Source: Eledone cirrhosa (taxonomy: Eukaryota). Taken from it: DNA of 64,000 bases. The notes beneath the pieces are model-generated. The model saw only the letters and a program-made list of their open reading frames with translations, was not told the DNA's origin and ran no database searches. Shown here one piece after another: positions 4,332 through 57,184 of the stretch. The DNA is taken from contig OZ024740.1 of the NCBI GenBank assembly GCA_964016885.1, positions 35,278,001-35,342,000 on the forward strand, in the 5' to 3' direction. Each line of letters begins with the position of its first letter. Position 1 is the first letter of the stretch. The translations under genes and the position numbers were made by a program.

Positions 4332-4342
4332 TATTATTATTA

Positions 4343-31899: not shown

Positions 31900-32043
31900 T
31901 AATAATTATTATTATTATTATTTTTATTATTATTATCATATATATATATCTAGTGTAGGTAGTACGGTGAAATACTGGTGTTGGTACCAAATCAAGCACT
32001 CTATGCACAGGTAGAGTGTATATAATACAAAAAAACAATGAAA

Positions 32044-32316
32044 TTTCGTTTACATATGAACAATATTTATGCGTATCGACCTGTTACGCGCGTTTCGCAG
32101 AGGATTGACTCAAGGTGACTCATAGGAGTTATGGACCCGACTCCAATATCGATCTGCTCCTCAGACTAGTGATGCGACAAAAGATATCACCAATCTGAGG
32201 AGCGGATTGATATTGGAGTCGGGTACATAACTCCTATGGGTCACCTTGAGCCAATCCTCTGTGAAACGAGCGTAACAGGTCGATACGCAATAAATATTTT
32301 ACATATGTAAACGAAA
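32044..32316. repeat. ~120-bp-arm inverted repeat (32044-32165 / 32194-32316), probably from a Penelope-like pLTR
   Basis: Arms are imperfect reverse complements around a ~28-nt spacer; each has hammerhead core boxes. Confidence 0.85.
32079..32170 (-). ncRNA. Hammerhead-ribozyme-like motif (type I, palindromic stem III); mirror copy on + at 32195-32280
   Basis: Minus strand reads ACTAGT-CTGAGGA-GCAGA...TCTGC-GAAA-CGCGCG-TA-ACAGGT; stem I is imperfect. Confidence 0.6.
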
Positions 32317-33383
32317 CTTCCTCAGACTAGCAACTGCTAATTTTTGACCGCCTTCTCGCCTTGGGCATTTCTCTCTGCTTTTCAGCCCCATGGATTGTGT
32401 CTATGATTATATTCCTTTGTTAAATTTCGAATACCTGATGCTGTCACCAGATTCATACTGAACCCGGTCATTGAAATGTTCATAGTATAATAAATCTTTA
32501 AGGAATTCCACCAGTCCAGCCTCCTGTTATTTTATAATAAATAACTCCGTACTCGCACCACCACCACACAAACGAAGACGGGTGAGTTGCTGCTTGACCC
32601 TCTGACCACTTCTCTGCACACACAGACACGCACCCCTCTCCACCTGTCATTCTCCTCTACCCTCCTCCTGCCTTGACCCTCTGACCACTTCCTGTTGCGC
32701 GCGCACCCCCACATCTCCCCTCTTACGACCAACACAATCACGGATTACACACCATTGGTCATCGTTCCCACCATCAACTCCATCACAAGGAAAATATCCG
32801 GCAGCTCACCACATCCTCTACGGAACTACCTTAGGAACTTATCCACGGACATACACTCACAAACATTTTTTTCGAACCACGCCACCTACATCCACAATAC
32901 GTATAAATTGGTCATACATGGGTTTTAATATTGATAGTGATTGGTCATACAAGGTCTTAATATTGATAGTGATTGGTCTTACAGATGTTAGATGTAATAG
33001 GATCGAATCTTTGAAATTTGTGACTGACAAAAAATAAAGTACTAAATAAAGAACGTATGTTTAGAAAAGTTTGATCGGAATTTGAAAATTGAATTAGAAG
33101 ATATCACCGCGACTCTGACTAAATAAAATCCAATCCAATTCAGAGCCTTCTCATTCCTGTTGAAGGAACCCCTCCCTGGTTGACCTCTACGGCTCTCTGT
33201 TTGGCTTTGGCCATGTCAGGGGTGTAGCCATACTTATTACGCTTGGCCAATTGCGGGTTGGTGAGGTTATTTAACTCATAGTTGGGGTGGAAGGTACCAT
33301 GTAACCCACTACAATCTGTTTCGTGGTCTGGTGATGATGGTAAGTGGAACCCAAGCAGTTTATAAATATTATTATATTTCGTG

Positions 33384-33705
33384 ATGGTCATTTTGCGAAT
33401 TTTGCCAATAAAAACACACGGGCTATTCTATTTTCACTTCATCTTTATTATTAGTTTTTAATTAATTCGTCAAAGCTTTGACGAATTAATTAATAACTTA
33501 TAATAAAGCTGAAGTGAAAACCGAATAGTGCGCGTGTATTTATTGGCAAAATGACCATCCTCAAATACCAGTTTTATTATGAGTTATTAATTAGTTTGTC
33601 AAAGATTTGATGAATTAACCAAAAACTAATAATAAAGCTGAAGACAAAACCGAATAGTCCATGTGTTTTTATTGACAAAATTGGGGAAATGACCATCTTC
33701 AAATA
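33384..33705. repeat. Small fold-back/MITE-like palindrome centred on CGTCAAAG|CTTTGACG (33475/33476) plus a second partial copy; mirrored at ~41770-42090
   Basis: ATGGTCATTTTGC...GGCAAAATGACCAT arms with no central spacer. Confidence 0.8.
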
Positions 33706-33773
33706 CAACATTATCTATTTCAACATATCAAGAATCTTGCAAAAAAAATACATAAACGTAGCAGATTATAAAA

Positions 33774-33912
33774 CTAGTAAGAAAGTGCAGTATTTTAAAT
33801 GTTGTAAAGCTAGTAAGAAAGTGCAGTATTTTAAATGTTGTAAAGCTAGTAAGAAAATGTAATATTTTAAATGTTGTAAAGCTAGTAAGAAAATGTAAAA
33901 TTTTAAATGTAA
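33774..33912. repeat. 36-bp minisatellite, ~4 units (mirrored at ~41560-41700)
   Basis: CTAGTAAGAAAGTGCAGTATTTTAAATGTTGTAAAG repeats. Confidence 0.9.
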
Positions 33913-34493
33913 AACTGTCTGGAGTAGGAATCAAATTTATAACATGGTTTATCCATATCAATGTAAATTCCCGATATAATTGTTATTTCCTAATCAATTC
34001 TATTACCTGTTCCAGCCGACAGGCTGAGACCATGATAGAATAAGGATATTTTTTTAATAAAGTTATATACTATTTTAAAGGATATTTTTCAATTATATAT
34101 ATTCAAATACAATTTTTAAAAAAACCAAACCATAAAAAATTACCTTCAGCAAATGGGTTTGACGGATCGTCTGCCATTGTTAGTGTTCCTTTCTTATATG
34201 TTTGTTAATGCAATGTAATGCGACAGTTTAAATTTATTTTTTCTCCTAAGAAATTCTTCAGATTTTCAATATATTTCAGTACATTTGCTCCTATCGCTCT
34301 CAGTTCAAAAAGTATCAATATCGTTTATTGGTACATTTTACATTTCTAATTTAATATGCTAATACATATAATTAGAAGGGTTTTCCCTATTTCTATACCT
34401 TTTTAAATATATCAGAATATCAATCAATAATTTTCTGTACTTCATAATTATATATTAGTTCATAAAATTGTGTGTATCTATATGTATATGGAT

Positions 34494-34528
<35 letters not shown>

Positions 34529-35181
34529 GGATTGTACATATATGTATGATGTGTGTGTGTGTGTATAGGGATTGTACATATATGTATGTATGATGCGTGT
34601 ATGTGTTCGTATGTATAGGGATTGTACATATGTGTGATGTGTGTGTGTGTTTATTTGTATGTCACATATATATATATATATATGTGTCTGTTTGCATGTA
34701 CGTATATATATTCATGTGTGTGTGTGTACGTGGATGTGTAATATACTAGCACGTGTATATGAGAGAATGCGGGAGATAATTAATTAGTTTATGAGAGAGA
34801 GGTGGGAGATAATATATGTATGAGAGAAGGGGGAGATAATTGTTGTATGAGAGAGAGAGGGAGGTAATTAGTGCAACAGCAGTGCATAATATTTCGAACT
34901 TTTATTTCTATAGAAAAAAAAATGTTTTTAATCAATATATAGTTTTAATTGTAATTAGCATTATATATTCACCTCCAATGTCCTTATATATTTATTTCAA
35001 CAGTCATTTGTGTGCGGAGGGCGTATACGTGTGTGGATGTGTATATAAGTATGCGTGTGTCTATGTGCGTGTATACAGGAGGTAAAAATATTTTACAATT
35101 TTCTTTCCTTCAACACCCTGTCCCCAAATCTCGTTAACCACTCCTTACATAACAAGCAAGTACATATACATTATATATATA

Positions 35182-35460
35182 TGGTAAAGGGTAAAGACCC
35201 CCTTCGATTACGAATGACCATGGGATTTGCACCTAGAAAGCTCTCCTTGAAGAACAGCAAACACCCATGTATACCAGTCCTGCCTCGCCACGTCACCGAT
35301 GTTGTCCAAGGGAAAGGCTAAGTCCCATACAGCTTGGAACCAGTGACGTCGCAACTCATTTCTACAGCTGAGTGAATTGGAGCGACGTGCTATAAAGCGT
35401 CTTGTTCAAGGACCAACCACACGATTGCAAGCCCAACGCTCTAACCACTAAACCATATGC
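35182..35460 (-). mobile_element. SINE-like repeat (mirrored at ~39995-40272)
   Basis: tRNA-like head (TGGTTTAGTGGTTAGAGCG) and a body related to the repeats at 43778 and 45531. Confidence 0.55.
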
Positions 35461-35484
35461 ATTTACTAAATAAATATGTCGATG

Positions 35485-36180
35485 AGTGTGGGGCTGAGAA
35501 TGAATGAGATTAAGACGAAGTATCTGGTTGAGAATATTAAGAAGCCAGAGAAGATTACTCATGTAGGCGGGAAGCCGCTAGAATTGGTTGAGGACTTCCT
35601 GTACTTGGGAGCAAAGATTGGGAATACGGAAGATGATGTGGTCGAGAGGAAGAGCAAAGCCTGGGCGACGTGCTACAGCTTCAGATCGGTGTGGAAGTCG
35701 GACCTTCGTAAAAGACCTGAAGATCCGCCTCTTCGTTGCTGTAGTCTGTGCTGTTGTATGGGTCTCAGACTTGGACACTGACCAAGAAACTCACTCAAAT
35801 GGTGAATGGATGCTACACGAAAATGCTGTGGATGGCTCTGAATATTAATCAGTATACACTGAGGATGAAGAACTCAGAGCTGTACGGGAGCCTCCCAAAT
35901 GTCAGCTCCAGAGTAGCACAGAGGAGACTGAGGTTAGCTGGACATGCTCACCGACATCCAGAGTTGACACTGCACTCAGTGCTCCTGTAGGAACCCCTGC
36001 ATGGACACACTGGAAGAGGAAGACCGAGGTTAACATATGTTGATGCCCTAAGGACATACACTGGTATCTTGGAGATGCAGGACATGGCAGCGATAATGAG
36101 GGACAGAGACAGCTGAAGAGAACTCGTCCATGGATCTCGGGAATCTTACCCGCCCTAGACATAGACCACATATGACTCCG
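35485..36180 (+). mobile_element. RTE-clade LINE 3' fragment, frameshifted (mirrored at ~39275-39970 on -)
   Basis: GLRMNEIKTKYL, VEDFLYLG, LKIRLF, LLYGSQTWTLTK..GCYTKMLWMAL. Confidence 0.75.
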
Positions 36181-36253
36181 TTAATTTATTTTCATATATA
36201 TATATATATATATATAATATAAGATCAAAAGATGGTTAAAGGAGTTCCATATA

Positions 36254-36320
36254 TTTTATTATGCGCATTTCAAAAACAAACATCATCATGCAATAATATT
36301 TGTGTTTTCATCAGATAAAA
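36254..36320 (-). ncRNA. Hammerhead ribozyme, inverted duplicate of 39134-39200
   Basis: Reverse complement of the + strand motif. Confidence 0.75.
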
Positions 36321-36857
36321 CAGGAGAACATGATATGAAGGCTAAAAAACACTTGTGGATAGTGCAGTTTTAAATCAACATATGAAAAGTGGTTTTAGAT
36401 TGATGTGTGATATTGGGAAAAATATTTTATTTAGAGAGGGGGGGTGGAAAGGATGAAAAGGGAAGGAGATGAGAGGGAGAGATGGGTGATAGAGAGAAAG
36501 AGATAGTTTTTATAACTGAGAGGAGATATATTTTTTACATAGAGAGGTTGAAAACCGTTGGAAGATACTGTATAAATTAAAAATTTTGAAAATTAACGAA
36601 GGGAGGATATGTGCGAGGAAAAAATATTTTATTTAGGGGGGGGGGAAGGATGAAAAAAAGGGGGAGGAGATGAGAGTGAAGGTGGAGAGGGAGAGATGGG
36701 TGATAGAGAGAAAGAGATAGTTTTTATAACTGAGAAAATGATATATTGTTTTAACATAGAGAGGTTGGGAACCGTTGGAAGATAATGTATAAATTAAAGG
36801 AATTTGAAAATTAACAAAGGGAAATTATGTATGAAGATAGAGAGAAAAAAATAATAA

Positions 36858-38129
36858 TTGTGGATGAATATTCTAACGTCAAAAAATAACCTAAAAATTG
36901 AATTTGATAATAGTATCAAACTAGCTAATTTCTTGGATGTATCTCTTAATCTTGACACTGGCCTATATTACCCTTACCATAAAAACAATGAGAACCTTAA
37001 TTATGTTAACTTTAAATCTAACCATCCTACCAATATCAAGAATGCTATAGTTAATAATATTGGAAATAGAATATCTAACATATCTTCTAATAAAAACATC
37101 TTTGATGCTAACGCCAATTACTATAATAACGCACTTTCTAAAGCCGGCTATCCAGATAAAATCAAATATAATAAAGAAACAAATTCTAGAAAAACTTACA
37201 GTAGAATAATTAATCATGACCATTCCAATAATTTTAATAAAAGACCTAGATACAAAAACATAATCTGGTATAATGCTCCTTTCTCCATCTCTATTAATAA
37301 CAATATTCCTAAATTATTTTTTAGTGCCTTAAATAAATGCTTCCCTCCCTCACATATCTATAGTAAAATATTTAACAAACACACCATCAAATTTTCGTAT
37401 TCTACATCCTCCAATATTTCCAACATCATCTCTAAACACAACAATAAAATACTAAATACTAAATTTCTTCCTTCCAATATTGAATTTCATAATAACAGTA
37501 ATAGTACTCCCGACGTCATTGTAAACCCTAGGCTAACTTCTGTAAACCCAAATACAACGTCAAACACAACTTCGCTAAATGTTCATAATCCAACTCTAAA
37601 TCAAGAAACTATTATTCCTATTATTCCTATCGCAAACAACTTCTCCAATCCAATTCCTTCTATAGATAACACTAGATCACTCATTAATAATCTCTCTAAT
37701 TGCAACTGCCGCATTAAAAATAAATGTCCTCTCAACAACCATTGTCTCGATAAAAACTTAATTTATGAATGTAAAATTATAACTAGCACCAATTCCTTCA
37801 CCTATTTTGGCTCCACTTCCACCTCTTTTAAAGCTCGTCTCTATAATCATCATTCATCTTTCAAATACAAACTTAAAAGAACTAACACTGCTCTCTCAGA
37901 ACTCATATGGTCCTTAAAAGACAAAAACATTAAATATACCATCTTTTGGAAGAAGATTTCTTCTGCATCCTCATACTTGAACAGCTCTCTATCTAAAATC
38001 TGTAATCTCTGCCTAAATGAAAAATTTACCATTATCTCTAACCTAGATTCTATAATAAATAGACGCACAGATTTGTTTTCTATCTGCCTGCATAAATTCC
38101 ATAGAACTTTTCACAAAGTATACAGTTAA
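36858..38129 (+). CDS. Uninterrupted C-terminal part of the PLE RT/GIY-YIG ORF; the first ~10 codons come from the inverted arm and the RT catalytic core is absent
   Basis: 423-aa open frame with a GIY-YIG-like LIY...YFG motif. Confidence 0.8.
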   Translation: MWMNILTSKNNLKIEFDNSIKLANFLDVSLNLDTGLYYPYHKNNENLNYVNFKSNHPTNIKNAIVNNIGNRISNISSNKNIFDANANYYNNALSKAGYPDKIKYNKETNSRKTYSRIINHDHSNNFNKRPRYKNIIWYNAPFSISINNNIPKLFFSALNKCFPPSHIYSKIFNKHTIKFSYSTSSNISNIISKHNNKILNTKFLPSNIEFHNNSNSTPDVIVNPRLTSVNPNTTSNTTSLNVHNPTLNQETIIPIIPIANNFSNPIPSIDNTRSLINNLSNCNCRIKNKCPLNNHCLDKNLIYECKIITSTNSFTYFGSTSTSFKARLYNHHSSFKYKLKRTNTALSELIWSLKDKNIKYTIFWKKISSASSYLNSSLSKICNLCLNEKFTIISNLDSIINRRTDLFSICLHKFHRTFHKVYS

Positions 38130-39236
38130 TATTCAATTCTTTATCAATTTAGAATCTTTTCTCAAAGGCACATATACATACACCTCTTTAAAATATACCC
38201 ATCTACCTTACTTTAAAGGGCATTATACACTCTATAATACTTGTTTACTCATTACCCTCATTCTATCTTCTCCTTGTAAAATCATAACATTTGTTTTGAC
38301 GTTAGAATATTCATCCGCAATCATTATTATTTTTTCTCTCTATCATAAATCTTTTTAATCTCAATTTCATCCTTAATTTATTATTATTTTTTTCTCCCCA
38401 TCAACGAACTCATTATTAATACATATTAACTCTTTATTCGCATATATTATCAATTCAATCAATATACAAACTTTAACTTCACATTATTTTTCTCAAATCC
38501 TTCTACACACAAACCTTAATAATTTTTCTCTTCGTTAATTTTGAAATTGCCACAATACATACATTTCTTTTTTGACGTTAGAATATTCATCCACAATTAT
38601 TATTTTTTTCTCTCTATCTTCATACAAAATTTCCCTTCGTTAATTTTCAAATTCCTTTAATTTATACATTATCTTCCAACGGTTCCCAACCTCTCTATGT
38701 TAAAACAATATATCTTTTTCTCAGTTATAAAAACTATCTCTTTCTCTCTATCACCCATCTCTCCCTCTCCACCTTCACTCTCATCTCCTCCCCCTTTTTT
38801 TCATCCTTCCCCCCCCCCTAAATAAAATATTTTTTCCTCGCACATATCCTCCCTTCGTTAATTTTCAAAATTTTTAATTTATACAGTATCTTCCAACGGT
38901 TTTCAACCTCTCTATGTAAAAAATATATCTCCTCTCAGTTATAAAAACTATCTCTTTCTCTCTATCACCCATCTCTCCCTCTCATCTCCTTCCCTTTTCA
39001 TCCTTTCCACCCCCCCTCTCTAAATAAAATATTTTTCCCAATATCACACATCAATCTAAAACCACTTTTCATATGTTGATTTAAAACTGCACTATCCACA
39101 AGTGTTTTTTAGCCTTCATATCATGTTCTCCTGTTTTATCTGATGAAAACACAAATATTATTGCATGATGATGTTTGTTTTTGAAATGCGCATAATAAAA
39201 TATATGGAACTCCTTTAACCATCTTTTGATCTTATA
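36887..39236 (+). mobile_element. Penelope-like element (Neptune-type), 5'-truncated: RT C-terminus, Cys-rich linker, GIY-YIG endonuclease, long 3' region with hammerhead, ending at (TA)n
   Basis: FLDVSL..YHK..YVNFKSNHP..IKNAI; CNCR..CPL..C..LIYECKI..YFGST..FKARLYNH..CNLCLNEK; stop at 38129. Confidence 0.88.
39134..39200 (+). ncRNA. Type I hammerhead ribozyme in the PLE 3' region
   Basis: TTTTAT-CTGATGA-[stem II AAACACAAATAT...ATGTTTGTTTTT]-GAAA-TGCGCA-TA-ATAAAA; perfect 6-bp stem I and palindromic stem III, as described for PLE hammerheads. Confidence 0.8.
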
Positions 39237-40943
39237 TTATATATATATATATATATATATGAAAATAAATTAACGGAGTCATATGTGGTCTATGTCTAGG
39301 GCGGGTAAGATTCCCGAGATCCATGGACGAGTTCTCTTCAGCTGTCTCTGTCCCTCATTATCGCTGCCATGTCCTGCATCTCCAAGATACCAGTGTATGT
39401 CCTTAGGGCATCAACATATGTTAACCTCGGTCTTCCTCTTCCAGTGTGTCCATGCAGGGGTTCCTACAGGAGCACTGAGTGCAGTGTCAACTCTGGATGT
39501 CGGTGAGCATGTCCAGCTAACCTCAGTCTCCTCTGTGCTACTCTGGAGCTGACATTTGGGAGGCTCCCGTACAGCTCTGAGTTCTTCATCCTCAGTGTAT
39601 ACTGATTAATATTCAGAGCCATCCACAGCATTTTCGTGTAGCATCCATTCACCATTTGAGTGAGTTTCTTGGTCAGTGTCCAAGTCTGAGACCCATACAA
39701 CAGCACAGACTACAGCAACGAAGAGGCGGATCTTCAGGTCTTTTACGAAGGTCCGACTTCCACACCGATCTGAAGCTGTAGCACGTCGCCCAGGCTTTGC
39801 TCTTCCTCTCGACCACATCATCTTCCGTATTCCCAATCTTTGCTCCCAAGTACAGGAAGTCCTCAACCAATTCTAGCGGCTTCCCGCCTACATGAGTAAT
39901 CTTCTCTGGCTTCTTAATATTCTCAACCAGATACTTCGTCTTAATCTCATTCATTCTCAGCCCCACACTCATCGACATATTTATTTAGTAAATGCATATG
40001 GTTTAGTGGTTAGAGCGTTGGGCTTGCAATCGTGTGGTTGGTCCTTGAACAAGACGCTTTATAGCACGTCGCTCCAATTCACTCAGCTGTAGAAATGAGT
40101 TGCGACGTCACTGGTTCCAAGCTGTATGGGACTTAGCCTTTCCCTTGGACAACATCGGTGACGTGGCGAGGCAGGACTGGTATACATGGGTGTTTGCTGT
40201 TCTTCAAGGAGAGCTTTCTAGGTGCAAATCCCATGGTCATTCGTAATCGAAGGGGGTCTTTACCCTTTACCATATATATATAATGTATATGTACTTGCTT
40301 GTTATGTAAGGAGTGGTTAACGAGATTTGGGGACAGGGTGTTGAAGGAAAGAAAATTGTAAAATAATTTTACCTCCTGTATACACGCACATAGACACACG
40401 CATACTTATATACACATCCACACACGTATACGCCCTCCGCACACAAATGGCTGTTGAAATAAATATATAAGGACATTGGAGGTGAATATATAATGCTAAT
40501 TACAATTAAAACTATATATTGATTAAAAACATTTTTTTTTCTATAGAAATAAAAGTTCGAAATATTATGCACTGCTGTTGCACTAATTACCTCCCTCTCT
40601 CTCTCATACAACAATTATCTCCCCCTTCTCTCATACATATATTATCTCCCACCTCTCTCTCATAAACTAATTAATTATCTCCCGCATTCTCTCATATACA
40701 CGTGCTAGTATATTACACATCCACGTACACACACACACATGAATATATATACGTACATGCAAACAGACACATATATATATATATATATATATATATGTGA
40801 CATACAAATAAACACACACACACATCACACATATGTACAATCCCTATACATACGAACACATACACGCATCATACATACATATATGTACAATCCCTATACA
40901 CACACACACACACACACACACATCATACATATATGTACAATCC

Positions 40944-40978
<35 letters not shown>

Positions 40979-41294
40979 ATCCATATACATATAGATACAC
41001 ACAATTTTATGAACTAATATATAATTATGAAGTACAGAAAATTATTGATTGATATTCTGATATATTTAAAAAGGTATAGAAATAGGGAAAACCCTTCTAA
41101 TTATATGTATTAGCATATTAAATTAGAAATGTAAAATGTACCAATAAACGATATTGATACTTTTTGAACTGAGAGCGATAGGAGCAAATGTACTGAAATA
41201 TATGGAAAATCTGAAGAATTTCTTAGGAGAAAAAATAAATTTAAACTGTCGCATTACATTGCATTAACAAACATATAAGAAAGGAACACTAACA

Positions 41295-41328
41295 ATGGCA
41301 GACGATCCGTCAAACCCATTTGCTGAAG
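41295..41328 (+). other. Candidate first coding exon (MADDPSNPFAE-) followed by a GTAATT donor; mirrored at 34144-34177 (-)
   Basis: ACAATGG start context, GC-richer island in AT-rich DNA, AAG|GTAATT donor; no further exons confidently linked. Confidence 0.3.
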
Positions 41329-42493
41329 GTAATTTTTTATGGTTTGGTTTTTTTAAAAATTGTATTTGAATATATATAATTGAAAAATATCCTTTAAAAT
41401 AGTATATAACTTTATTAAAAAAATATCCTTATTCTATCATGGTCTCAGTCTGTCGGCTGGAACAGGTAATAGAATTGATTAGGAAATAACAATTATATCG
41501 GGAATTTACATTGATATGGATAAACCATGTTATAAATTTGATTCCTACTCCAGACAGTTTTACATTTAAAATTTTACATTTTCTTACTAGCTTTACAACA
41601 TTTAAAATATTACATTTTCTTACTAGCTTTACAACATTTAAAATACTGCACTTTCTTACTAGCTTTACAACATTTAAAATACTGCACTTTCTTACTAGTT
41701 TTATAATCTGCTACGTTTATGTATTTTTTTTGCAAGATTCTTGATATGTTGAAATAGATAATGTTGTATTTGAAGATGGTCATTTCCCCAATTTTGTCAA
41801 TAAAAACACATGGACTATTCGGTTTTGTCTTCAGCTTTATTATTAGTTTTTGGTTAATTCATCAAATCTTTGACAAACTAATTAATAACTCATAATAAAA
41901 CTGGTATTTGAGGATGGTCATTTTGCCAATAAATACACGCGCACTATTCGGTTTTCACTTCAGCTTTATTATAAGTTATTAATTAATTCGTCAAAGCTTT
42001 GACGAATTAATTAAAAACTAATAATAAAGATGAAGTGAAAATAGAATAGCCCGTGTGTTTTTATTGGCAAAATTCGCAAAATGACCATCACGAAATATAA
42101 TAATATTTATAAACTGCTTGGGTTCCACTTACCATCATCACCAGACCACGAAACAGATTGTAGTGGGTTACATGGTACCTTCCACCCCAACTATGAGTTA
42201 AATAACCTCACCAACCCGCAATTGGCCAAGCGTAATAAGTATGGCTACACCCCTGACATGGCCAAAGCCAAACAGAGAGCCGTAGAGGTCAACCAGGGAG
42301 GGGTTCCTTCAACAGGAATGAGAAGGCTCTGAATTGGATTGGATTTTATTTAGTCAGAGTCGCGGTGATATCTTCTAATTCAATTTTCAAATTCCGATCA
42401 AACTTTTCTAAACATACGTTCTTTATTTAGTACTTTATTTTTTGTCAGTCACAAATTTCAAAGATTCGATCCTATTACATCTAACATCTGTAA

Positions 42494-43032
42494 GACCAAT
42501 CACTATCAATATTAAGACCTTGTATGACCAATCACTATCAATATTAAGACCTTGTATGACCAATCACTATCAATATTAAAACCCATATATGACCAATCAC
42601 TGTTATTATTAAGATCGGTCAATGGCCAGTCACTGCCAATATTAAGACACATTAAGACCAATCATTGCGAATATTAAGATATATGTATGACCAATGATTG
42701 CCATTATTAAGACCTTTGTATGACCAATCATTGCCAATATTAAGACCTTGTATGACCAATATCTTCCATTATTAAGACCCATGTACGACCAAACCCTGAC
42801 ATTATTAAGACCTTATATGACTAGTCATTGTTATTGTTAAGATCTGTGTATGACCAATCACTTTACCAATATTAAGACCTTATATGACCAGTCACTTCCA
42901 TAATTAATACCAATGTATGACCAATCAATGACAATATTAAGACCTCTATATGACCAATAAATGCCTATGTAAGGTAAATCAATGCCAGTATTAAAAACCT
43001 TCTATGACCAATTACTGTTCTTATTAAGACCT
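42494..43032. repeat. Degenerate ~32-bp minisatellite (GACCAATCACTATCAATATTAAGACCTTGTAT)
   Basis: About 16 diverging units; the palindrome's outer breakpoint lies inside it. Confidence 0.88.
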
Positions 43033-43777
43033 GTGCAGTTACAATTATTATTTCTTTTTTTACCTAATGCTACCATATTTTGTTTTGTTAACTGTTGTAG
43101 AAGTGAGACATTTATTGCTGAGAAGATTTTGTTGTGTTATCAATTTATTTGATAAATATCTTGTTTGCTATTGTAACGACATTACATTTGTTTTGGCTAA
43201 ACTCTATAGGTCAAATTTTCTTCCAGAAAGCAACTCAAAATATTTTACAAGTTTTGAGCAGCTTTCATTAGTTCGGATCCTACTGAGGATATTTGAGTTG
43301 TTGATAAACAAATTGCAGCAGGAACGAGCATGAAAAAGTGAAAATTATATCAAACAAATTCTTGGGACAATTTCATGGTTCTGGATAATACACAACTCCT
43401 ATGCTTTTGTTGGATAGAATTTTTTAAATCGATTTTGAGGTTCTTCGGCTACAAATTTAATTGTTTCTAATAACGTTTTTAATAGCTGACATTTTCAATT
43501 GCTTTGTAGAAACTTAGAAATATGTTGTCTATCTACACTCCTTGGTTCAGTATACGTGCCAATATGTTTGCAAAGGATATGAACTACAATCTACATGATC
43601 TCTACTGTGTTAGTTTCCGTTGACTATCCGTTAGTAAGCCATAGGAAGAAACATTGACCATTGTGCTGCTATAGATGATAAATATCCTTATCTTTTAGGC
43701 GATATGTGTCATGGATATTGTTTTCTGTCAGGTTTTTGTTTTTGAAAGATCGGAAAAATAGTTGGTTATTGTATACT

Positions 43778-43892
43778 GGAGCAACGTGAAATGAAGTGTT
43801 TTGCCTAAGAACACAACACGCAACCCAGGAATCGAACCCACGACATTATGATCGTAAGTCCAACTCCCTTACCACTAAGCCACTTGCCTCCA
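43778..43892 (-). mobile_element. tRNA-derived SINE fragment
   Basis: Minus strand has A-box-like TGGCTTAGTGG and B-box GGTTCGATTCC; related to 45531-45650. Confidence 0.65.
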
Positions 43893-44694
43893 CTATCTAA
43901 TGATATATAGGAGATAAATATTTAACGAGGCATTGGCTGTTAATTATTTTTGGAATTGACTGCTTGCGTGTCAACTTTGTGATCATTTTCATATCGATTT
44001 TTAGTTTTTTTAATTAGTTTTATGAGTTTCATTTTTGCTACACAAATTAGCACTCGGCAGTTTTTATTTCTTTTACTTATGTTAAAAATGAAGAATTTCT
44101 TAAGGCTATCTCTTACTTATGTTTCTACCGTGGCGTGGAAAACATTCCAATTAATTTACTGAGACGCTGTTTTCTTCCTTCACAAGGACCAACTTTCTTT
44201 ATTCACTTAAAGTCCTATCTCCCAGACATCAACACAGAAAGAGAAAAATAATAAAATTAAGAAGGAATTAAAGATTTCTCCATTAGTCATGAAAATATTT
44301 GTTCACTTGGTATATTTTTCATTTAGCTGTTGATTTTATTTTTTCCTCTGTTTTTTTTTTTTTTATAAAAAAAAATGTTCTTCCACTTCCATATAAAATA
44401 GCTCACCTGTGTTATTCTACGATTATTACATGTGACACTGGCGATTATCACAGTTTTTAGTGCTGTTCTAGTCTGAGAAATGATAGGATTGTATTGAGTA
44501 TAGACAAACATTTAACTAGTTGTTTTTTGTTGTTCGGTTCCCTATCGAACAGACATTACAACTATAGCCATCTTGATTTCAGACATAATATGTCTGGGAC
44601 TTAGTTATCAACGTGTCTTGCCTTTTTTAGAAGGAAGGGTGAGATTTGAGGAACATTTGGCTACTATTTCTAGAAGGCTGAATCCCCTCATTGG

Positions 44695-44785
44695 CTGTGA
44701 TCGGTGGGTCATGTGATCGGTGTGTCATGTGATCGGTTGGTCATACAATCGATTGGTCATGTGATCGGTGGTTCATGTGATCGTA
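44695..44785. repeat. ~16-bp minisatellite (TCATGTGATCGGTNNG)
   Basis: About 6 units seen. Confidence 0.75.
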
Positions 44786-45530
44786 TGCAAACAAACGTAT
44801 ACGTAGCCGGATGTTTGTTGACATCTAAAAGCTGTGATTCAGCTAATTTAAGACAGTAAGAGTTGTCACGATCCTGTGGTTTAATGTTTTAAAACGTCCA
44901 GCCGGTATCTGGGAGATTTGGTATTCGATTCCTCAGAGCGGTCCATGGCAACTTCTTTTTCCGTATTTACGGGTCTTCTCTCTATTTTATAGCATTGTCG
45001 AGCACGAGCACATCATTCTTTATCATCTCAGTGCTTTGTAAAAGTCCGAGAGATCGGCTACGCATACACCGTATTTCACTTAGTTATTCACCCTTTACTG
45101 CAATAGTGAAAATTCCAATAAGGGTTGGCTGTTGGAGAATCTCTATGCTGCTGCTTGAGCTACAAAAAACAGTAGCCAACTCTCTTACAAATCTTTCCCT
45201 ACCATCTTAAAAAAGAGACACATTAGATAATATAGGCATTGCTATAAAAACAGAAGTGATGGTCACGGCTTGAATGACTTTCGATCACAGATCTTCTCAA
45301 TCAGGGCTGACCGGAGGCTAAACAACTACCACCACCAATCCCCACTACATACACATCTCATCTCAACCTCTCTATATATAAGCTCCTCTTTTCTCTTTCC
45401 AACTCCTACATATTCCCTTTCCATAATGGACGTCCACAGTCTCTATATAAAATCCGTCTTTATGTTCTCTTCCGGTTTTATTCTTCTCCATTCTTTCCCA
45501 CCCTTTTCATTTCCTTTTATATATTGTGAA

Positions 45531-45650
45531 GGCGTGTGGTTGAGTGGTTAGAGAATTGTATTCACGATCTTGAGGCTGTGAGTTCGATTCCTGGACCGGG
45601 CGATGCGTTATGTCCTTGAGAAAGACACTTTATTTCACGTTGCTCCTTCT
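45531..45650 (+). mobile_element. tRNA-derived SINE fragment
   Basis: TGGTTGAGTGG (A box), GAGTTCGATTCC (B box), then CACTTTATTTCACGTTGCTCC. Confidence 0.65.
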
Positions 45651-45814
45651 ACCTGGAGTTGCGACCGATAGTTAGTATTAGCAATTGGAAAGACCAATGG
45701 AAACATTGTTTCATCGGTTCGATTTGACGAAAGTCGATCGTTCCTTTTTATATATTGTAGCGTTTTCATTTTTTGGAGATTTCTTTTGTGAAACATTCTT
45801 GTATGATAGAGCCA

Positions 45815-46402
45815 TGGATTGGCAGTATCGGTAGAGAGTCGGACACCATGCTTTCGAGCATAGTTACGTCCCTTTACGGTCTGAGTTCAAATCCCGTCAT
45901 GGTTAACTTTGCCTTTCATCCTTACGGGGTCGATAAAATAAAGTACCAGTAATGTACTGGGTAATTGCTGGCCTTGTGCCAAAAGTAGAAACAATTATTC
46001 TCGTGCCCATTTCTAAATTCTCTGTTTTATTTGCGAGACTTAAGGAGAAAAGCCCGGCCCTTTATTTAGAATTTATTTTAGTTTTGTGGAGTTTTACACG
46101 AAGGAATTTTGGTATTTTTTATGTATGATTCAAAGTACGCATCCCTCATAATTACTTTAGGCTGATACAGTTTTTACTCGTATTATTTGTCATTTTTAGG
46201 GCGGTGGAGTGTCGGATACCATGCTTTGCAGCATAGAGTTACGGCCCTTTACGGTCTGAGTTCAAATCCCGTCGAGGTTAACTTTGCCTTTCATCCTTAC
46301 GGAGTCGATAAAATAAAGCACCAGTAACATACTGGGGTCGATTTAATTGACTTCCTCTCCCCCCCAAATTACTGGCCTTGTGCCTAAACTAGAAATCATT
46401 AT
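45815..46402 (+). mobile_element. Two copies of a second SINE family (~45815-45998 and ~46200-46402)
   Basis: GAGTTCAAATCCCG..TTAACTTTGCCTTTCATCCTTACGGGGTCGATAAAATAAAGTACCAG..CTGGCCTTGTGCC; further copies at ~56090-56250 (+) and ~57040-57160 (-). Confidence 0.7.
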
Positions 46403-46547
46403 TTGTCCTTTTTGAGTGTGGTAGTGGTGAACCGGACGAAATTGGTCAGGTGTTGATATGAACCGAGTTCCAAGAGTAAGTTGATACGTAATATGGCATC
46501 AGCGAATGGAAGACACCAAATAGGTGTTAAGCGTATTACTCATGCAG

Positions 46548-46909
46548 TCTTCTTCTTCTTCTTCTTCTTCTTCTTCTTCTTCTTCTTCTTCTCCTCCTCC
46601 TTCTTATTCTCCTCCTCCTCCTCCTCCTTCTCCTCCTCCTCCTCCTCCTCCTTCTCCTTCTTCTTCTCCTTCTTCTCCTCCTCCCCCTCCCCCTCCTCCT
46701 CCTCCTCATCATCATCATCCTCCTCCTCATCCTTCTTCTTCTTCTTCTTCTTCTTCTTCTTCTTCTTCTTCTTCTTCTTCTTCTTCTTCTCCTTCTTCTT
46801 CTTCTTCTTCTTCTTCTTCTTCTTCTTCTTCTTCTTCTTCTTCTTCTTCTTCTTCTTCTTCTTCTTCTTCTTCTTCTTCTTCTTCTTCTTCTTCTCCTTC
46901 TTCTTCTTC
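46548..46909. repeat. Compound (TTC)n/(TCC)n microsatellite
   Basis: Seen directly; fully polypyrimidine on + apart from a few A. Confidence 0.97.
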
Positions 46910-48270
46910 AAATCGTTGCTGTACCGCATGGCCTGTAACCTTGCATCAATTCCGATTCTATTTACACAGTCCTCAAAACTGTCCGATATACATCCCAATG
47001 CTCCAATCACCACTGGAATCACTAAAACCTTCTTCATTCCCCACAACTTCCCAACCTCCTCCTTCAGTGGCTCATACTTCTTTATCTTCTCATGCTCTTT
47101 ATGTTTCACTCTATTTTCTTCTAGGACATATCTATCGATAATTTGGGCCTCTTTTTTCTTCTTGTTCACAAAATATCTGGCCTTCTTGCCTCAATCATTC
47201 TATCGTATTGAATGGCGAAGTCCCACAAAAGCTTAAATTCGACATTCGCTCATACTCCTTCTGGTCTCTGCTCATACCATTTAGTTGCACTGACTAACCC
47301 ATATTTCTCAATGTATATATCTGGCAACATTATCATGATGCTTAATGTAGTTAGTTGGAAGAGCCTGCTCCTGGGAGCTGTACACCAGAGGTTCAGTGCA
47401 TCCTTTCAGATTGCCATTTTTATGCCACGACCAACTCTTTTCCCATTCAAAGCCTATTTTATCTTTTGTGTACTGTCCATACATAAGTTTATCCTTCCAT
47501 TCCTTTTCAAGTTCATTTTTTACTTTCTTCCTACATTCATTGGGTGCTACTACATCAGCAGATTTCTGTGTGTCGAAGTCTCTTACTTTTGACATGATGT
47601 AACCCTTTACATTTTTAAGGTACCAACGTAGGTTGTTCGCTTTTAACACAATTTTTCACAACTTATCAGTCTTCTACCTCCGTTCTTTCTTCCAATATAA
47701 ACTCTCGCGACATCACTCTTTGGGTGGAATTCGTTATGCATTGTCATCAATTCCCTAGTTTTCCTATCAATACTTTCCAATTAAACCTTCCACCATTTAA
47801 TAACTCCTGCCCCATAGCGCATGAGAGACACAGTCCATGTATTTTTTTTACCTTGATCTTATTCCTTCCATTCAATTTAGATGACATTACAAGTCTCATT
47901 CGCTTGATGTATTCTTTTTTAAATATCTCCTTCATTTCTTTCTCTTTCTCCCACTTTTTTTAATAGTCTGGCCATTTACAAGCTTAATCCCTCTATTCTG
48001 TGTTAGTTTTCTACGTTTCAGAGTTACAACACCATATTTTTTTTATCCCACACTCCATCCCAATATCCTGACTAATCAGGTTTACAATAGATGTTAAGCT
48101 ATCAATTCAAATAACTTCAAATCATCCATGAATAATAGATGGTTGATCTTAATACCATCTAACACATATCACATTTTCCCTTTTCTAAGGATTTCGGTCA
48201 TGAGGATCATACAGTGACAAATAAGAGTGGTGATAACCTGTTTCTCCGAAATATGCCGCTTCGTATGTTA
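46910..48270 (-). mobile_element. Old, decayed R4/Dong-type RT-RLE remnant
   Basis: HEKIKKYEPLKEEVGKLWGMKKVLVIPVVIGALG; KEYIKRMRLVMSSKLNGRNKI; INHLLFMDD encoded near 48120-48150. Confidence 0.8.
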
Positions 48271-48539
48271 ACAGAGCGTAACTGTTAACATACTAACAGC
48301 TATAAAACGGTGATAGCAAACACAACAATTATAACAATGAAAACACGACAACAACAACATCAACAATAACAACAATAGCTATAAAAACAATAACAGCAAC
48401 AAGAACGAGTCACCTAGCAAACCAGTCAAAAATGTCAGCACTAGTGGTAAGATATCTGTCGCTAATGCTATGAAATCTTTCTTCCACTAAGTTACTTACT
48501 CTGAGGAAGAAGTACAAAACAAATGGCTGATGGAAAGAG

Positions 48540-50120
48540 CTGGCCCTACTGTCAAACTCAACACTTGTTAACACCACCCAAAATATAGTCTGTTGCACGG
48601 TGACGTACTGTGTTATTGGTTTAAAAAAGGAAGGAAGAGAGAACAGAGGCTCAAATACAAATGGCTTTAGGTTCCATATGGAAGTTGAGGTGAAATTTGT
48701 GACAGAAGAGAAAGCAAGATCTCTGTATGAGGCTCTAGAACCATTCTGCGAATTCACTGACAGCACCGAGACACTAGAAGGAGTTGAGAAATATGTGAAG
48801 CGAACGGAACTGATATTCACTATACAAGATGTAATCACTGATGTTAAAAAGAAACATCTGATACAGATATGGGGTGGGGTGATGATCCCATGACTTTTCT
48901 ATCATACAGGTAAAGTCAAAACAGAAGATTCATTCATCCAAACCGCGAAAAACACCAAGGATTGTTTGAAAGCAGCAATGAATCAAGTATATCCCATATA
49001 CAAACACTTCCGTGTCATTCCTCAGGGTAACAAGACGTTTCAGACAGGTATCCTCAGGTTTTAGAGCAAGTAATGAGATATCCACTAGGTAATTCTACAC
49101 TAGTACCTGCAGTCAGAGATGCCACCGCCATGCAAGCTTCAAGCTCCTTTCGCATTCGGAAAAAAGCCATCCAGAAGGACCTGTTTATGAAACACTGGTT
49201 ATACTTGGGTTTACTCGTGAGACAACTGACAAGCAAGCGAAGGCTGTACATTCCATTAAGACACCTCATGAGACTCACGACAAGAGAGCTATCTGTGATA
49301 AATGTGGGTCTGAGGAAAAAGGCTTATCTAAGTGGATCATGTCCAGCCAAAGGTAAAAAATGTGGAGTTTGTGGGGAAAGAGGATATTTCCCGAAAGCTG
49401 AGGTTTGCAGTCGGAAAAGAAACGACTAGTCCGTTATCAGACATAAAGGCTCCTGTTCGGGATAACAGAAGTTGAGATTTCAGCGAGAGCAGCGTAGACA
49501 ATGATGTTGGTTGTGTAGTTGTGTGATTTGTAGCCACAGATAAGTGACGATGAAATTGTGAAAGTCTAAGTCTTCATAAATGGTAAGGAGACATTCAAAC
49601 AAGTTGATTATGACTGTAGTAAGACTGATTAGCAACAATGAGTTCAAGAAACTGAATTGTGGCAGTAAATTTTGTTCAATCAATGCCAAGTTCACATTTT
49701 ATGGCACAAAACAACTGCTCCTAATCAAAGGTCGTGCCAAATTAACACTAGGTTCGGTAGGTGGTTCAAAACTAGTCTCATGGATTTACATATAGATGAT
49801 AAAAGTAAATCCTTGTTCGGTTTTGAAGATGCACTTAGCATTTTGCCAACTAACCCAGAAGCCATTGTTGTCAACGCTAACAACGCAACACTATCGAGCT
49901 CCACAGAAAAGATACTCCAAGAAGTTGATCACATATTTGATAGAATTGGATCATTCAATGGTTTAAGATAGATAGGTATGTTACACCAGTAGTTCAAAAA
50001 TATAATCCTATTCCTCTGACGTACAGAGATAGAGTTGATAAACATAGATGAACTTTTAGCTAATGATATTATTGAAGGACCCTTGGGCTCTAAAGAAGAT
50101 TTACAATGGATATCTAAATG
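48540..50120 (+). mobile_element. Decayed Ty3/Gypsy-like gag-pol fragment
   Basis: Knuckle-like CPAKGKKCGVCGERGYFPKAEVC; RT-start-like ELLANDIIEGP..WIS; many stops; no LTR identified. Confidence 0.55.
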
Positions 50121-50529
50121 AAATATGTTTAGAAACATTACTGCAACTGTAAATCTAAATCCACTAACTTGAATACAATTCTGATTATAATTATTTTCCT
50201 TTTTGCAAATTCTGTATCTGTATCTGATTGTTCAAATATACAGAATAAAATATCAACGCATAAAGTTCCATTAGCCGAAAATGTTTCCCGTTTGCTGAAA
50301 ATTGTTATTACTATATTCATTTGTTTAATATTATTATAGCTTAAGAATTATTATCATTAAATTTCATTAAACCTTTATTAAATTAGTCAATATGACTCGT
50401 TGTCAGGCTATTGAATGCTGAAGATAAGGAGAGCTTCAGGCCTTCGCTCATTAGTTAGTTGGCAGTACTTCACGGAGGATATAAACAGCAGAACCTAGAA
50501 ACACCAAACAATGGAGAGTATTTATTTCG

Positions 50530-50745
50530 TACTCTCCAAGTACCGGTCGCTCTCCGACAGGTTCGTGGTCGTCGCCTTGGCAGGGGAGACTTCTGGTGTC
50601 CTTGGCCCTAGGGCTACTTCTCTACTCACCTCCATAGGCGCTGAGCTGGCCAGCCGCAGGTGTGAACCTCGCGAGCTGGAAAAGCTCTTCCAGTGCAGCT
50701 CCCTTACCATCCTCCGTGGAAACGCCTTCTCCATTCTGTCCGCCG
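50530..50745 (+). mobile_element. CRE-like non-LTR RLE C-terminal fragment
   Basis: SKYRSLSDRF..ETSGVLGPRA..IG..EPRE..LFQ..LTILRGNA. Confidence 0.65.
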
Positions 50746-50941
50746 GGGCTGTGGGGAGGCCAGCACGTGGGAGCCCATTTGCTCACCATACAGAGAGATG
50801 GGGAGGGCGAGAGAGATGGAGGCGATGACAGTGGGAGTTCGGATCTTCCACGTTCGGACCATATCCTTGTGATTGTTTCATTAAGTAGTTAATGTCTCGC
50901 AGATCGATATCCATATTCACCCATTCCTCTTTCCTGACGTC

Positions 50942-52888
50942 TGGCTTCGGTGGAGCCCTGATCAACTTGGATCAGTCTAAGGCTTTCGATAGGGTGGACC
51001 ATCGTTACCTGGATGCGGTGCTCGAGGCGGCAGGCTTCGGACCCGTGTTCAGGGGCTGGATTGCTGAAATGCACAGCAGCAACATCTGCTCAAGGGTCAA
51101 GGTGAACGGCTACCTCTCGGAGCCGTTCCATATCACGCGATCCATCCGACAGGGATGCCCTCTTTCCTCCCTTCTGTACGTACTGACTCTCGAGCCACTA
51201 CTGCGGAAGTTGAAGCTGTTGCAGGGCATCCCTTTGGAACCGGGACTGCGAAAAGCGGCGTCGGCCTACGCCGACGACGTGTCAGTAATGGTGTCGAGCA
51301 TCTCACAAATCGAGGAAGTCGGCACCTTACTGAAGGAATACGAAAGGTTCACAGGAGCGAAGATGAACCGGGACAAATCCGTCGGTTTGCAACTCGGAAC
51401 GTGGAGAGGCAAACCGATATCTTCCGATGGCGTCGTCGGACGCTGGACAGAAGGACCGGTAAAGCTGCTCCGTGTCTGGTTTGGTCCGGACCTCCAGGTG
51501 GAGAAGAACTGGAAGGAGGTGACGGCCAAGGTGTTTGCACTCACCCAGAAGTGGGCCGAGTGCAAACTATACTTGAAAGGTCGAGCGGAGGTGGCGAACA
51601 CTTTTATAGCGTCCGTCATCTACTACCGCTTGACCGTCGTGCCTTGTCCAGCCAAAGCGCTCACCAAAATGGAGCGCGTGCTCTTCCAATTCCTTTGGAA
51701 GAAGCAGGCTCCTTTGGTGAGAAGATTCATCTGCTGCCAACACCCTTCAAACGGAGGGCTGGGGATGCCGTGGCTGACGATGCGCAAACACGCGCTCAGG
51801 CTGCGGTACCTCCACGTATTCCTCACCGGACAACCGGTGTGGGCCCCGTTCGTGAGGCGAGCCTTCCCACGACTCGTCTCGCTGACCGAGCTGCAGTCCT
51901 GGGTCAAGCAAAGACCGAGGAAAACGGGCGACTGGCACATCGAATGTGCTCAGGCGCTCACAGCCCTCTGGCAAACGGACCCGGCGATCAGTGGAGACTC
52001 CACTTCGTCATTCTATAGAGGGTTGGTCTGCAGCAAGTGCGACGACGTGCTCGGAGAAACGCTGGGCGTAGAGGAGGACGAACTGGCCAGTCTGTTCGGT
52101 AGGACCTTCCGCCCGGGACCGATGGACAACATTCCAAAAGTCCCTGGCCTGGTAGTGCTACCGAGGAGCTCTACCAGTTCGAGACAAGCTCTACAGACAT
52201 GGGCGCCTGGGCAGGGACTCTGCAAAAAAGATCTGTCCGAGATGCGTGCTCGACGAAGAAACCGTCGCGCACGCATTCATACAGTGCCCGGGCGTCACTG
52301 ACCTGTGGGACTATGTAGAACGACTATTGTCACGGGTGGGACCAATCCAGTTGACCACCGAGTCCATTGTCATGATCAAACCGCCACCCTCCTTCAAAAA
52401 CGAAGGAGAGGCGGTTTTCCTTTGTGTGATAGCTATGGCGAAATAGGTTGTATGGTGGACAAGGTTGAAAGGGCTGAGGTCAGATACCTTTCTCTCCGGC
52501 CAACAACTGATTCTTTTTTTAAAATACCACTTTGGAAGAAGAATCAGGATGGAGAGAGAGGTGCTGTATCCCAGCAAGTTTTATGAAAGTTGGGTGAAAG
52601 TGGCGAGAATGGCCCGAGTGAATGGGCCTTCTCTCTATATCAGCCTGTAGGTTGAGGAAAAGGAGGGTGAGAGGAAAGGAGTACAAACTCTTCGTACTCC
52701 TGGAGATGAGGGTTGCACATTTTTTCGGGGGTATGTGTTACCCATATAAACTGTCTCCCTCTATTGGGGAAAATCGACTAACTTTTTAAATTCCATTTGT
52801 GATAACATTTTACACGTTTTTATTGTATGTAAACTTCCCCCTCTGTATTTGTCCCCTTCTTTTGTGCCCCTGTGGCTAATAAAGAAAC
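50942..52888 (+). mobile_element. Tx1/L1-clade family B, 5'-truncated copy 1, followed by (ATCT)n at 52891-52966
   Basis: RT/CCHC homologous to family A (LINLDQSKAFDRVDHRYL, SAYADD); ends GTGGCTAATAAAGAAAC. Confidence 0.9.
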
Positions 52889-52889
52889 A

Positions 52890-52967
<78 letters not shown>

Positions 52968-52979
52968 GTTAATCTGTCT

Positions 52980-55900: not shown

Positions 55901-55988
55901 TATTAATAGTTTTATTTTCATATACCTGTATGTAAACTCTCCATTTGTATTTGTCCCCTTCTTTTGTGCCATTGTGGCTAATAAAGAA
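52980..55988 (+). mobile_element. Tx1/L1-clade family B, 5'-truncated copy 2, followed by (ATCT)n at 55989-56026
   Basis: Begins at the end of the APE domain (YSDHKLV) just after the (ATCT)n tract; has stops and frameshifts; ends GTGGCTAATAAAGAA. Confidence 0.9.
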
Positions 55989-56026
<38 letters not shown>

Positions 56027-57184
56027 AAAACAAATGACCTATGTTGCAACAAGTATCCCACGCTAAACATGCTTTACTTCATATAGTTACGGCTCTTTTC
56101 CTTCTGAGTTCAAATCCCACCGAAGTCAGCTTTGTATTTTAATCTCACAGGGTCGATGAAATAATGTACCAGTAACGCACTGGATCGATTTAATCGACTT
56201 TCCCTTTGCCCCCAAATTGCTGACATTGAGCCAATATTAGAAATAATTATTTTTGCAATCATTCATTAATTGAACAATTTCTATAATTGTTGAATAACGT
56301 TTATTACTTTACCTCACGATACCGTCTCAATGAGGTCACTCGATCTGCTAAAGATCACAGCCAAATCTCCCTAATATTCTTATTTTAAACAACAAAAGTC
56401 GATTCCAGAAAATCACAACCTCGCATCTTAAACAACAACAACAACAATCTAATATAAAATGATTGGAGAAATGCGAGACTGTGTCAGGGATATTTTTTCT
56501 GAACACGTTATGAAGATAAGTTGGATTACTTTGAATAAATCATGGATGAATATTATGTAATTTATCTACTAAATTTCGTAGCTCTTGATTAAACATAAAT
56601 ATTCTTATATATAATGTATTGCTTATTCTAAGACTCACTTCTTTTAAAATGTTCAAATGTTAACACTTCCGGTTAGCGTCCGTTATATCTTAACACTTCG
56701 CCGTACGCTACATAAAATCGTTTATATAAACGTTCATGTATTTGCATTGTTATATGACGTTTATATTTCAGTCGCTAATTTTCTCCTTTTTCGTTTTCAT
56801 AACATTTCAGCGTAATGCAGTTTATATATAATATCGACTTTTTAAAATGATTCGTGGATTACTTTACTGATTACAGAAGAGAGTGTAACACAGTCTCTCT
56901 TCAATTTCTGTGCATATTCCCAATTTAATTTTCATTTGACGTATCATATCTACATGCATAGATATTTGCGTATAATATCAATATGCATACTATATATGCC
57001 AGCAGAAAACCACCCGAAGGGTGGTTTATCTGCTAGTAGTAATAATTGTTTCTACTTTTGGCACAAGGCCAGCAATTACCCAGTACATTACTGGTACTTT
57101 ATTTTATCGACCCCGTAAGGATGAAAGGCAAAGTTAACCTCGGCGGGATTTGAACTCAGAATGGCAAGTAGTAATAATGATAAT

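Follow-up and report, generated by a model that had tools for sequence, protein, structure and literature searches.

We find that a 64,000-nucleotide stretch of the Eledone cirrhosa genome (assembly GCA_964016885.1, contig OZ024740.1, positions 35,278,001 to 35,342,000 of the forward strand; hereafter, the window) carries a 9.7-kb palindrome centered on a Penelope-like element (PLE). The locus is an inverted duplication with an adjacent deletion of ~555 bp and a single-copy spacer between the arms. The palindrome looks real and is well resolved, but it is a rare kind of PLE-linked inverted duplication: 3.3 kb of host flank has been duplicated together with the element's 3′ end. We regard the event as probably a single mishap of repair involving the inverted ends of the element itself, since none of 72 other inverted pairs shows anything similar.

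The palindrome and its empty paralogous site

Self-BLAST of the window returns one inverted pair, 32907-36889 against 42564-38565, with 99.275% identity over 4,001 columns. Alignment sets the exact inner arm ends at 36886 and 38568, and a 33-bp minisatellite allows the register to move by one unit, which puts the outer right end at 42597. The arms proposed in an earlier, sequence-only reading of this DNA (32907-36886 and 38568-42597, 99.3% alike) are thus borne out. The same reading described a spacer made solely of a 5′-truncated PLE, and we find that its 1,681 bp match other copies of the family throughout, with a stop-free frame as far as 38129. It also took the inner breakpoint to be the truncation point of the element. 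This agrees with longer copies, which go on with other sequence at 36887 (one upstream context is common to 33 of 42 matches). The ~0.67 kb of PLE 3′ region that it saw in each arm, ahead of flank beyond the (TA)n, measures 672 bp. We place the element's 3′ end at (TA)n because other copies part from the window sequence there, at 39240-39260. There is no N within the palindrome region, and both junctions are base-exact. The inner one joins two PLE positions with 1 bp of exact microhomology, and the outer one, at 32906/32907, also has 1 bp. Both element ends lack a tail, and each carries (TA)11.

The arms are not an exact mirror, as the sequence-only reading had noted. Outside the minisatellite they differ by seven substitutions (left coordinates 34023, 34268, 35004, 35088, 36739, 36816, and 36827), two microsatellites differ in length by 10 and 8 nt, and the minisatellite units do not follow the same order. 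Within the PLE ends, three substitutions lie in the inner 150 bp, while the outer ~520 bp has neither substitutions nor indels. There are no gaps and no differences at family-polymorphic sites, and homopolymer lengths are equal.

Full-length matches to a 541-bp flank probe number just three genome-wide: the two arms and a site at C1:34.148 Mb. A probe from left of the palindrome matches this same place, which lies in a paralogous block of ~45 kb, 1.17 Mb away, and holds an empty site. There, a left segment (X) is followed by a segment of ~555 bp (Y), then by a (TA) run of ~60 nt and the flank, and last by the 33-bp unit in an array of ~10 kb. From this order, it follows that the PLE entered the (TA)n, that the flank is native, that the left arm is the new copy, and that Y was deleted. 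The right arm remains collinear with the paralog onward for 17 kb. Y, intact in the paralog and missing at the palindrome, is the terminal ~555 bp of an element from a second PLE family and includes another hammerhead-like motif; the (TA)n has lost its left part as well. This deletion was missed in the sequence-only reading. In a canonical PLE inverted insertion, the inversion is confined to the element and the flanks are kept on both sides. The locus does not match this pattern, as 3.3 kb of flank is duplicated and ~555 bp is lost.

The 2.4 minisatellite units of the left arm match the start of the paralog's array exactly, and the right arm retains what matches the first and last two units of that array. 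Parsimony on unit order suggests that the right array shrank after being copied.

We also use the paralog to date the palindrome. Of the four single-nucleotide polymorphisms (SNPs) in the flank that it polarizes, three are derived on the left arm and one on the right. At the three PLE-end SNPs, one state is found in 68 of 68 other arms, which makes two derived on the left and one on the right. Thus, the left arm has five private mutations and the right arm two. Compared with the paralog, the arms show 14 and 12 differences in ~3,250 bp, and 11 of these are common to both, so neither arm is a misplaced piece of the paralog. Over its 1,681 bp, the spacer has one private substitution, where the per-arm rate predicts about 1.5, and the PLE end has no private change common to both arms. 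The ages of insertion and duplication are therefore inseparable. The link between duplication and PLE made in the sequence-only reading holds, as the inner junction joins two PLE positions and the spacer shows no extra age over the split of the arms.

In contigs of another sample, the flank occurs in a single version that has the ancestral letter at each of its four SNP sites, so that sample appears to be without the palindrome and gives no confirmation of it. Among the listed contigs of samples S1 and S3, none bridges 36886/36887, although 161 further pieces lie outside that listing and absence is unproven.

The paralog was considered as a misassembled haplotig, and this was rejected: similarity ends at satellites after ~45 kb and the flanks are unrelated, which makes a segmental duplicate likelier. 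Sample S1 has no paralog-type letters in 34024-34467, which the segmental duplicate leaves unexplained.

Table 1. Features of the palindrome and its immediate surroundings, in window coordinates.
Feature	Position	Strand	Basis or remark
3′ region of the second, high-copy PLE family, cut at 32906/32907	32593..32906	+	3,873 candidates; intact in paralog
Left arm: new, inverted copy (3.3 kb flank plus 672 bp PLE end)	32907..36886	-	Self-BLAST, alignment, paralog comparison
2.4 units of the 33-bp minisatellite	32907..32983	-	Order is that of the start of the paralog's ~10-kb array, not of the present right-arm array
Inverted PLE 3′ end, tail-less	36215..36886	-	Alignment with right arm and other copies
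Single-copy spacer: 5′-truncated PLE body and first part of the 3′ untranslated region	36887..38567	+	Stop at 38129
PLE 3′ end of right arm, tail-less	38568..39239	+	Comparison with other copies
Minimal type I hammerhead-like motif	39134..39201	+	Core motifs by eye; mirror at 36253-36320
Native flank	39240..42597	+	In place in empty paralog; no Pfam domain
33-bp minisatellite	42489..42965	+	~3 homogeneous units and degenerate tail here, ~10 kb in paralog

The native flank contains (TA)11, a fragment resembling a long interspersed nuclear element (LINE), a repeat resembling a short interspersed nuclear element (SINE), microsatellites, a 36-bp tandem repeat, a 357-bp fold-back (41754-42110), and the start of the 33-bp minisatellite. 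The labels RTE and SINE given to these two repeats in the sequence-only reading are putative, resting on translation; neither has a Pfam match. The flank also holds a candidate exon of 11 codons (41295-41328). Among the 58 of 112 frames scanned from 39260-58800, only LINE domains were found, with no host domain in the arm. No gene duplication by the palindrome is shown, and no function is shown or implied. The dsRNA and ADAR editing raised in the sequence-only reading would take a single transcript running through the two arms and being edited or diced.

Other repeats occur around the palindrome. Satellites of 59 bp and 47 bp (window 1-4332 and 60634-63993) flank the ~45-kb block whose duplicate lies at C1:34.13-34.18 Mb, and the 33-bp minisatellite has words in common with the 59-bp satellite. 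Between 9080 and 30907, a LINE-like element of ~5-6 kb with (ATT)n at its boundaries occurs three times in direct orientation, the copies being 92-97% alike; the paralog has one. Two short fold-back elements of 281 and 357 bp (32040-32320 and 41754-42110) resemble miniature inverted-repeat transposable elements. The second PLE family (32593-32906; L038-L055) also ends in (TA)n. The young element was inserted at the tail of one of its copies, and other copies have a GIY-YIG-like frame upstream.

The PLE family and its inverted ends

The element appears to be a young, endonuclease-bearing (EN+) PLE of Neptune-like type, judging from motifs, architecture, and comparison with PMC8557442. By eye, the spacer encodes the C-terminal part of a reverse transcriptase (RT), an Asn-rich linker, a Cys motif, and a GIY-YIG part with CCHH. 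Three natural copies have an open frame of 821 codons, in which RT-like, Cys-linker, and GIY-YIG/CCHH-like motifs can again be discerned by eye. A C-x-C ... CP ... C motif lies directly ahead of the GIY-YIG part, and a Cys-rich motif between RT and EN is typical of Neptune and Nematis (PMC8557442). The protein has 33 homologues at E<=1e-10. It has no match in Pfam, where one of seven aligned members has a weak GIY-YIG match (E 0.012), and none in a PDB search. The hammerhead-like motif at 39134-39201 has no Rfam ribozyme match, and its fold is not better than that of shuffled sequences (z -0.87).

A search of the 3.0-Gb genome with a 471-bp PLE probe gives 1,892 candidate matches, of which the best 40 are at about 100%, and a 34-mer at the end of the element has 6,180 exact matches. 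Copies of the family number in the thousands, often with inverted ends. Pseudo-long terminal repeat (pLTR) ends, inverted 5′ copies, a tail at one end, and a microsatellite target are all present in the family. Copies also occur in other arrangements. At L127:4969-4982 (C11:1.64 Mb), two element ends lie tail to tail with one TA run in common, and two loci (L125-L126, C7:48.02 Mb; L179-L180, C2:269.25 Mb) hold direct tandem copies with a period of 3.3-3.7 kb, 95-97% alike, each comprising a PLE pair and flank.

We compared 72 other outward-facing inverted pairs, of which 32 are consecutive on C1 and the remainder come from best hits and pattern lists; five have <600 bp of flank on one side and about three were paired too widely. 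None shows flank inversion, which sets a 95% upper bound of about 4% of inverted pairs. Forty ends taken from lists, a subset of the material behind the 72 pairs, have an inverted end upstream in 24 cases (three of them matches under 30 nt) and contiguous flank inversion in none. We also read by eye 700 of 1,236 end matches in seven lists with fixed following letters, where the palindrome locus is the only same-class outward-facing pair within 20 kb. It was recovered there as a positive control; slippage in TA runs lowers the sensitivity of these lists, and the survey as a whole is a sample of copies. Thus, flank inversion is not a habit of the family, contrary to what the sequence-only reading had suggested for PLEs in general.

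Several candidates were rejected as flank inversions. Three cross-class outward-facing neighbors, 14-20 kb apart, are separate insertions. L154 has long TA runs, L158 is a 96% repeat pair with no inverted PLE end, and L074 shows a tail plus 15 nt. The loci at C7:20.38 Mb and C9:44.7 Mb are not flank inversions either.

Normal pairs have a consistent asymmetry. An 85-nt tail is present at exactly one end in 63 of 72 pairs, at both ends in 3, and at neither in 6. Of 27 well-mapped pairs with unequal arms and one tail, hand-picked from 64 mapped rows, 20 have it on the shorter arm. An arm that is short and tailed cannot be copied by fold-back from a long tail-less one, which points to two separately made complementary DNAs (cDNAs), and not fold-backs, as the origin of normal inverted ends. 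It is therefore doubtful that the normal inverted end is a fold-back that simply ran on at the palindrome, one of the routes raised in the sequence-only reading. The arms of 26 normal pairs differ in 0-21 columns, mostly five or more and with indels; only one pair has three differences or fewer, and about a third of the differences are shared family variants. At least one arm stops 166-175 nt from the element end in 24 of 64 pairs (window 39071; small pairs L079-L093 and L140-L175), which is probably the 5′ end of the RNA, or transcript start. Arms that end there give palindromic mini-insertions of ~330 bp.

In vitro, PLE extension occurs on both strands, from two reverse-transcription start sites (PMC11167929). 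The normal pairs fit a pair of cDNAs whose priming occurred on opposite strands and at two start sites. This agrees with that work, the parts of which considered here do not themselves propose such an origin for inverted ends. How these ends are built is a named open question (PMC8557442).

How the flank came to be duplicated

The order before and after the event is clear: the ancestral site ran X-Y-(TA)n-flank, whereas now the PLE lies in the (TA)n, Y is absent, and the left arm copies the right arm and flank. For the path between the two, we tentatively favor a normal inverted insertion followed by a template switch between the element's two inverted ends, which copied 3.3 kb of flank. In the usual insertion, the right side would have been formed by a long cDNA with no tail and the left side by a tailed cDNA of 672 nt, produced separately, with the two joined at their 5′ ends. 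During insertion or shortly thereafter, a break or a stalled fork would have arisen within the left arm or next to it, so that the 3′ end of this arm could pair with the homologous right arm, 2-3 kb away. Synthesis might then have moved outward past the tail-less end and the (TA)n, traversing the flank until it halted in the third unit of what was then a long 33-bp array. The new strand would have been joined to X by 1 bp of microhomology, with loss of the tail and Y, and the right array would have shrunk later. The PLE would thus provide the break and, in its 672-bp arm pair, the inverted homology, with the copying done by host repair.

Evidence for this sequence of events comes from the empty paralog, the private mutations on both arms, the indistinguishable ages of insertion and duplication, the frequency of inverted ends in the family, and the make-up of the arms. 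The tailed short arm is the partner expected at the locus, and it is missing. From the tail-less ends and the lack of indels and of polymorphic differences, it follows that the left arm was copied as DNA from the right arm over at least its outer part. Three of the seven SNPs fall within the inner 150 bp (P about 0.002 if uniform, in an interval chosen post hoc), as if the cluster were a remnant of the original independent arm and the rest a DNA copy. Several observations weigh on the other side. The cluster is only three post hoc sites, and significance is lost when all 672 bp are considered (P 0.10). All three PLE-end SNPs are private, compared with about a third shared family variants in normal pairs. 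One normal pair (L078) has identical arms. Two events close in time are needed, and the intermediate, an insertion with its tail and Y intact, was not seen.

A further point against a one-off accident is L098 (2571-6998; G000:C1:82.697-82.701 Mb), a possible second PLE-linked flank inversion. Here, a small normal PLE pair is followed by a unique 700-bp stretch, and 2.3 kb on, an inverted copy of this stretch (99.4%) adjoins a TA/GA run and a 49-bp PLE stub. The stub starts within 3 nt of the predicted hammerhead cut; the ends face inward, the opposite geometry. We consider it rather unlikely that a PLE integration intermediate copies kilobases of host flank in inverted orientation (by cDNA fold-back or sister-end tethering) at a low but recurrent rate, with L098 as a second product. 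If it does, a family with thousands of young insertions would seed tens of host palindromes per genome.

One-step fold-back, the route put first in the sequence-only reading, needs only a single event. A single tail-less cDNA would have snapped back at the truncation point onto 38568, primed itself, run past the element's end and 3.3 kb into the attached flank, and been joined to the resected left end. This accounts for the agreement of the arms in all family variants and homopolymer lengths, for two tail-less ends with equal (TA)11, and for the equal age of insertion and duplication, and self-annealing fold-backs of L1 cDNA have been reported (PMC11702581). We nevertheless regard it as unlikely, given that the inner junction has just 1 bp of exact microhomology, that the inner SNP cluster, with one of its three SNPs on the right arm, is left unexplained, and that the family's usual short arms are not fold-back copies. 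The tail-less ends, equal TA lengths, and equal age would also be expected under a sister-end origin. Replication of the flank-side end left by endonuclease cleavage would have yielded two sister ends, and at each of them a tail-less cDNA would have been primed. After head-to-head joining of the two cDNAs, the resulting palindromic chromatid would have broken in the minisatellite and been rejoined to X. A model of this kind exists for L1, with an example of two inverted RT products at a fold-back junction (PMC11702581). However, two independent cDNAs should differ along all 672 bp, whereas so few differences were seen in only the one normal pair, and a clean rejoining within 555 bp is required; such an origin seems quite improbable. 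The PLE is the cause in the template-switch, one-step, and sister-end explanations alike.

The PLE could instead be a bystander to a generic replication template switch, both inner breakpoints having fallen by chance inside an older, longer copy. The region is rich in segmental and tandem duplications and satellites, and inverted duplications that combine short microhomology with spacers of kilobase length are common as a class (PMC3907307, PMC12350158). But the insertion shows no extra age, and the junction resembles the family's ordinary head-to-head junctions, so we give this little credence. We give slightly less to an assembly artifact, from a fold-back read or merged haplotypes. Independent read support is absent, and the other sample's single, ancestral-type flank would suit an artifact. 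Against this stand private substitutions on both arms, length drift in microsatellites, the 1.68-kb spacer, base-exact junctions with no N, the matching deletion, and the 11 differences from the paralog common to both arms. PLEs can move host DNA between pLTRs (PMC3846280), and the sequence-only reading had raised 3′ transduction of the flank from a donor locus. This is very improbable: the empty paralog has the flank at the corresponding position and is collinear with the right arm, and the genome search found no donor with PLE and flank, the 541-bp probe matching at full length only the arms and the paralog.

Significance and comparison with known systems

The locus and its empty paralog provide a base-resolved footprint of one PLE insertion gone wrong, within a family whose thousands of young copies can be used for counting. 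For genome evolution, this means that kilobase palindromes with local deletion can arise from such insertions, albeit seldom. That the tail is mostly found on the shorter arm speaks for an origin of normal inverted ends from two separate cDNAs, which could be tested in the in vitro Poseidon system. L1-linked fold-backs and the class of deletion with inverted duplication are already known. In titles and abstract openings from a literature search on PLEs with inversion or flank, which did not extend to supplements or older subscription work on Drosophila Penelope, we found no PLE inversion that reaches the flank.

Head-to-head inverted copies and one-sided tails are standard features of PLEs (PMC8557442, PMC3846280). 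The locus shares head-to-head ends, a (TA)n target, and a hammerhead-like motif near the end with canonical EN+ insertions (PMC8557442, PMC3846280, PMC11167929). The rest of the family also shares the tail at one end, and the two RT start sites and both-strand priming seen in vitro fit two cDNAs. In contrast, the tail here is 85 nt, compared with 30-40, and the palindrome is tail-less at both ends, with an inversion that extends 3.3 kb into the flank and a deletion on the opposite side, for which the parts of those sources considered here describe no such case.

As in L1-mediated fold-back junctions (PMC11702581), a retroelement cDNA centers an inverted duplication of target DNA with little microhomology. 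Those events are somatic, often long-range, and from cell clones, whereas ours is small, was healed within 555 bp, is found in an assembled genome, and involves a PLE. The combination of deletion, inverted duplication, and kilobase spacer is also that of inverted duplication with adjacent deletion in humans, where inverted LINE or SINE copies served as homology at 3 of 21 junctions (PMC3907307, PMC10766186). The human rearrangements are megabase-scale, terminal, and formed via dicentrics, while the palindrome described here is interstitial, with 4-kb arms and the element itself as its spacer. For this class, inverted homology or microhomology of at least 2 bp is expected where the spacer begins; the present inner junction has 1 bp, and in the two-step explanation the 672-bp arm pair would serve as the homology. 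Finally, alternative transposition of maize Ac/Ds likewise shows a transposon making a hairpin-forming inverted duplication (10.1101/2020.01.07.897926), there by DNA transposase chemistry and with siRNA shown, and here with a PLE.

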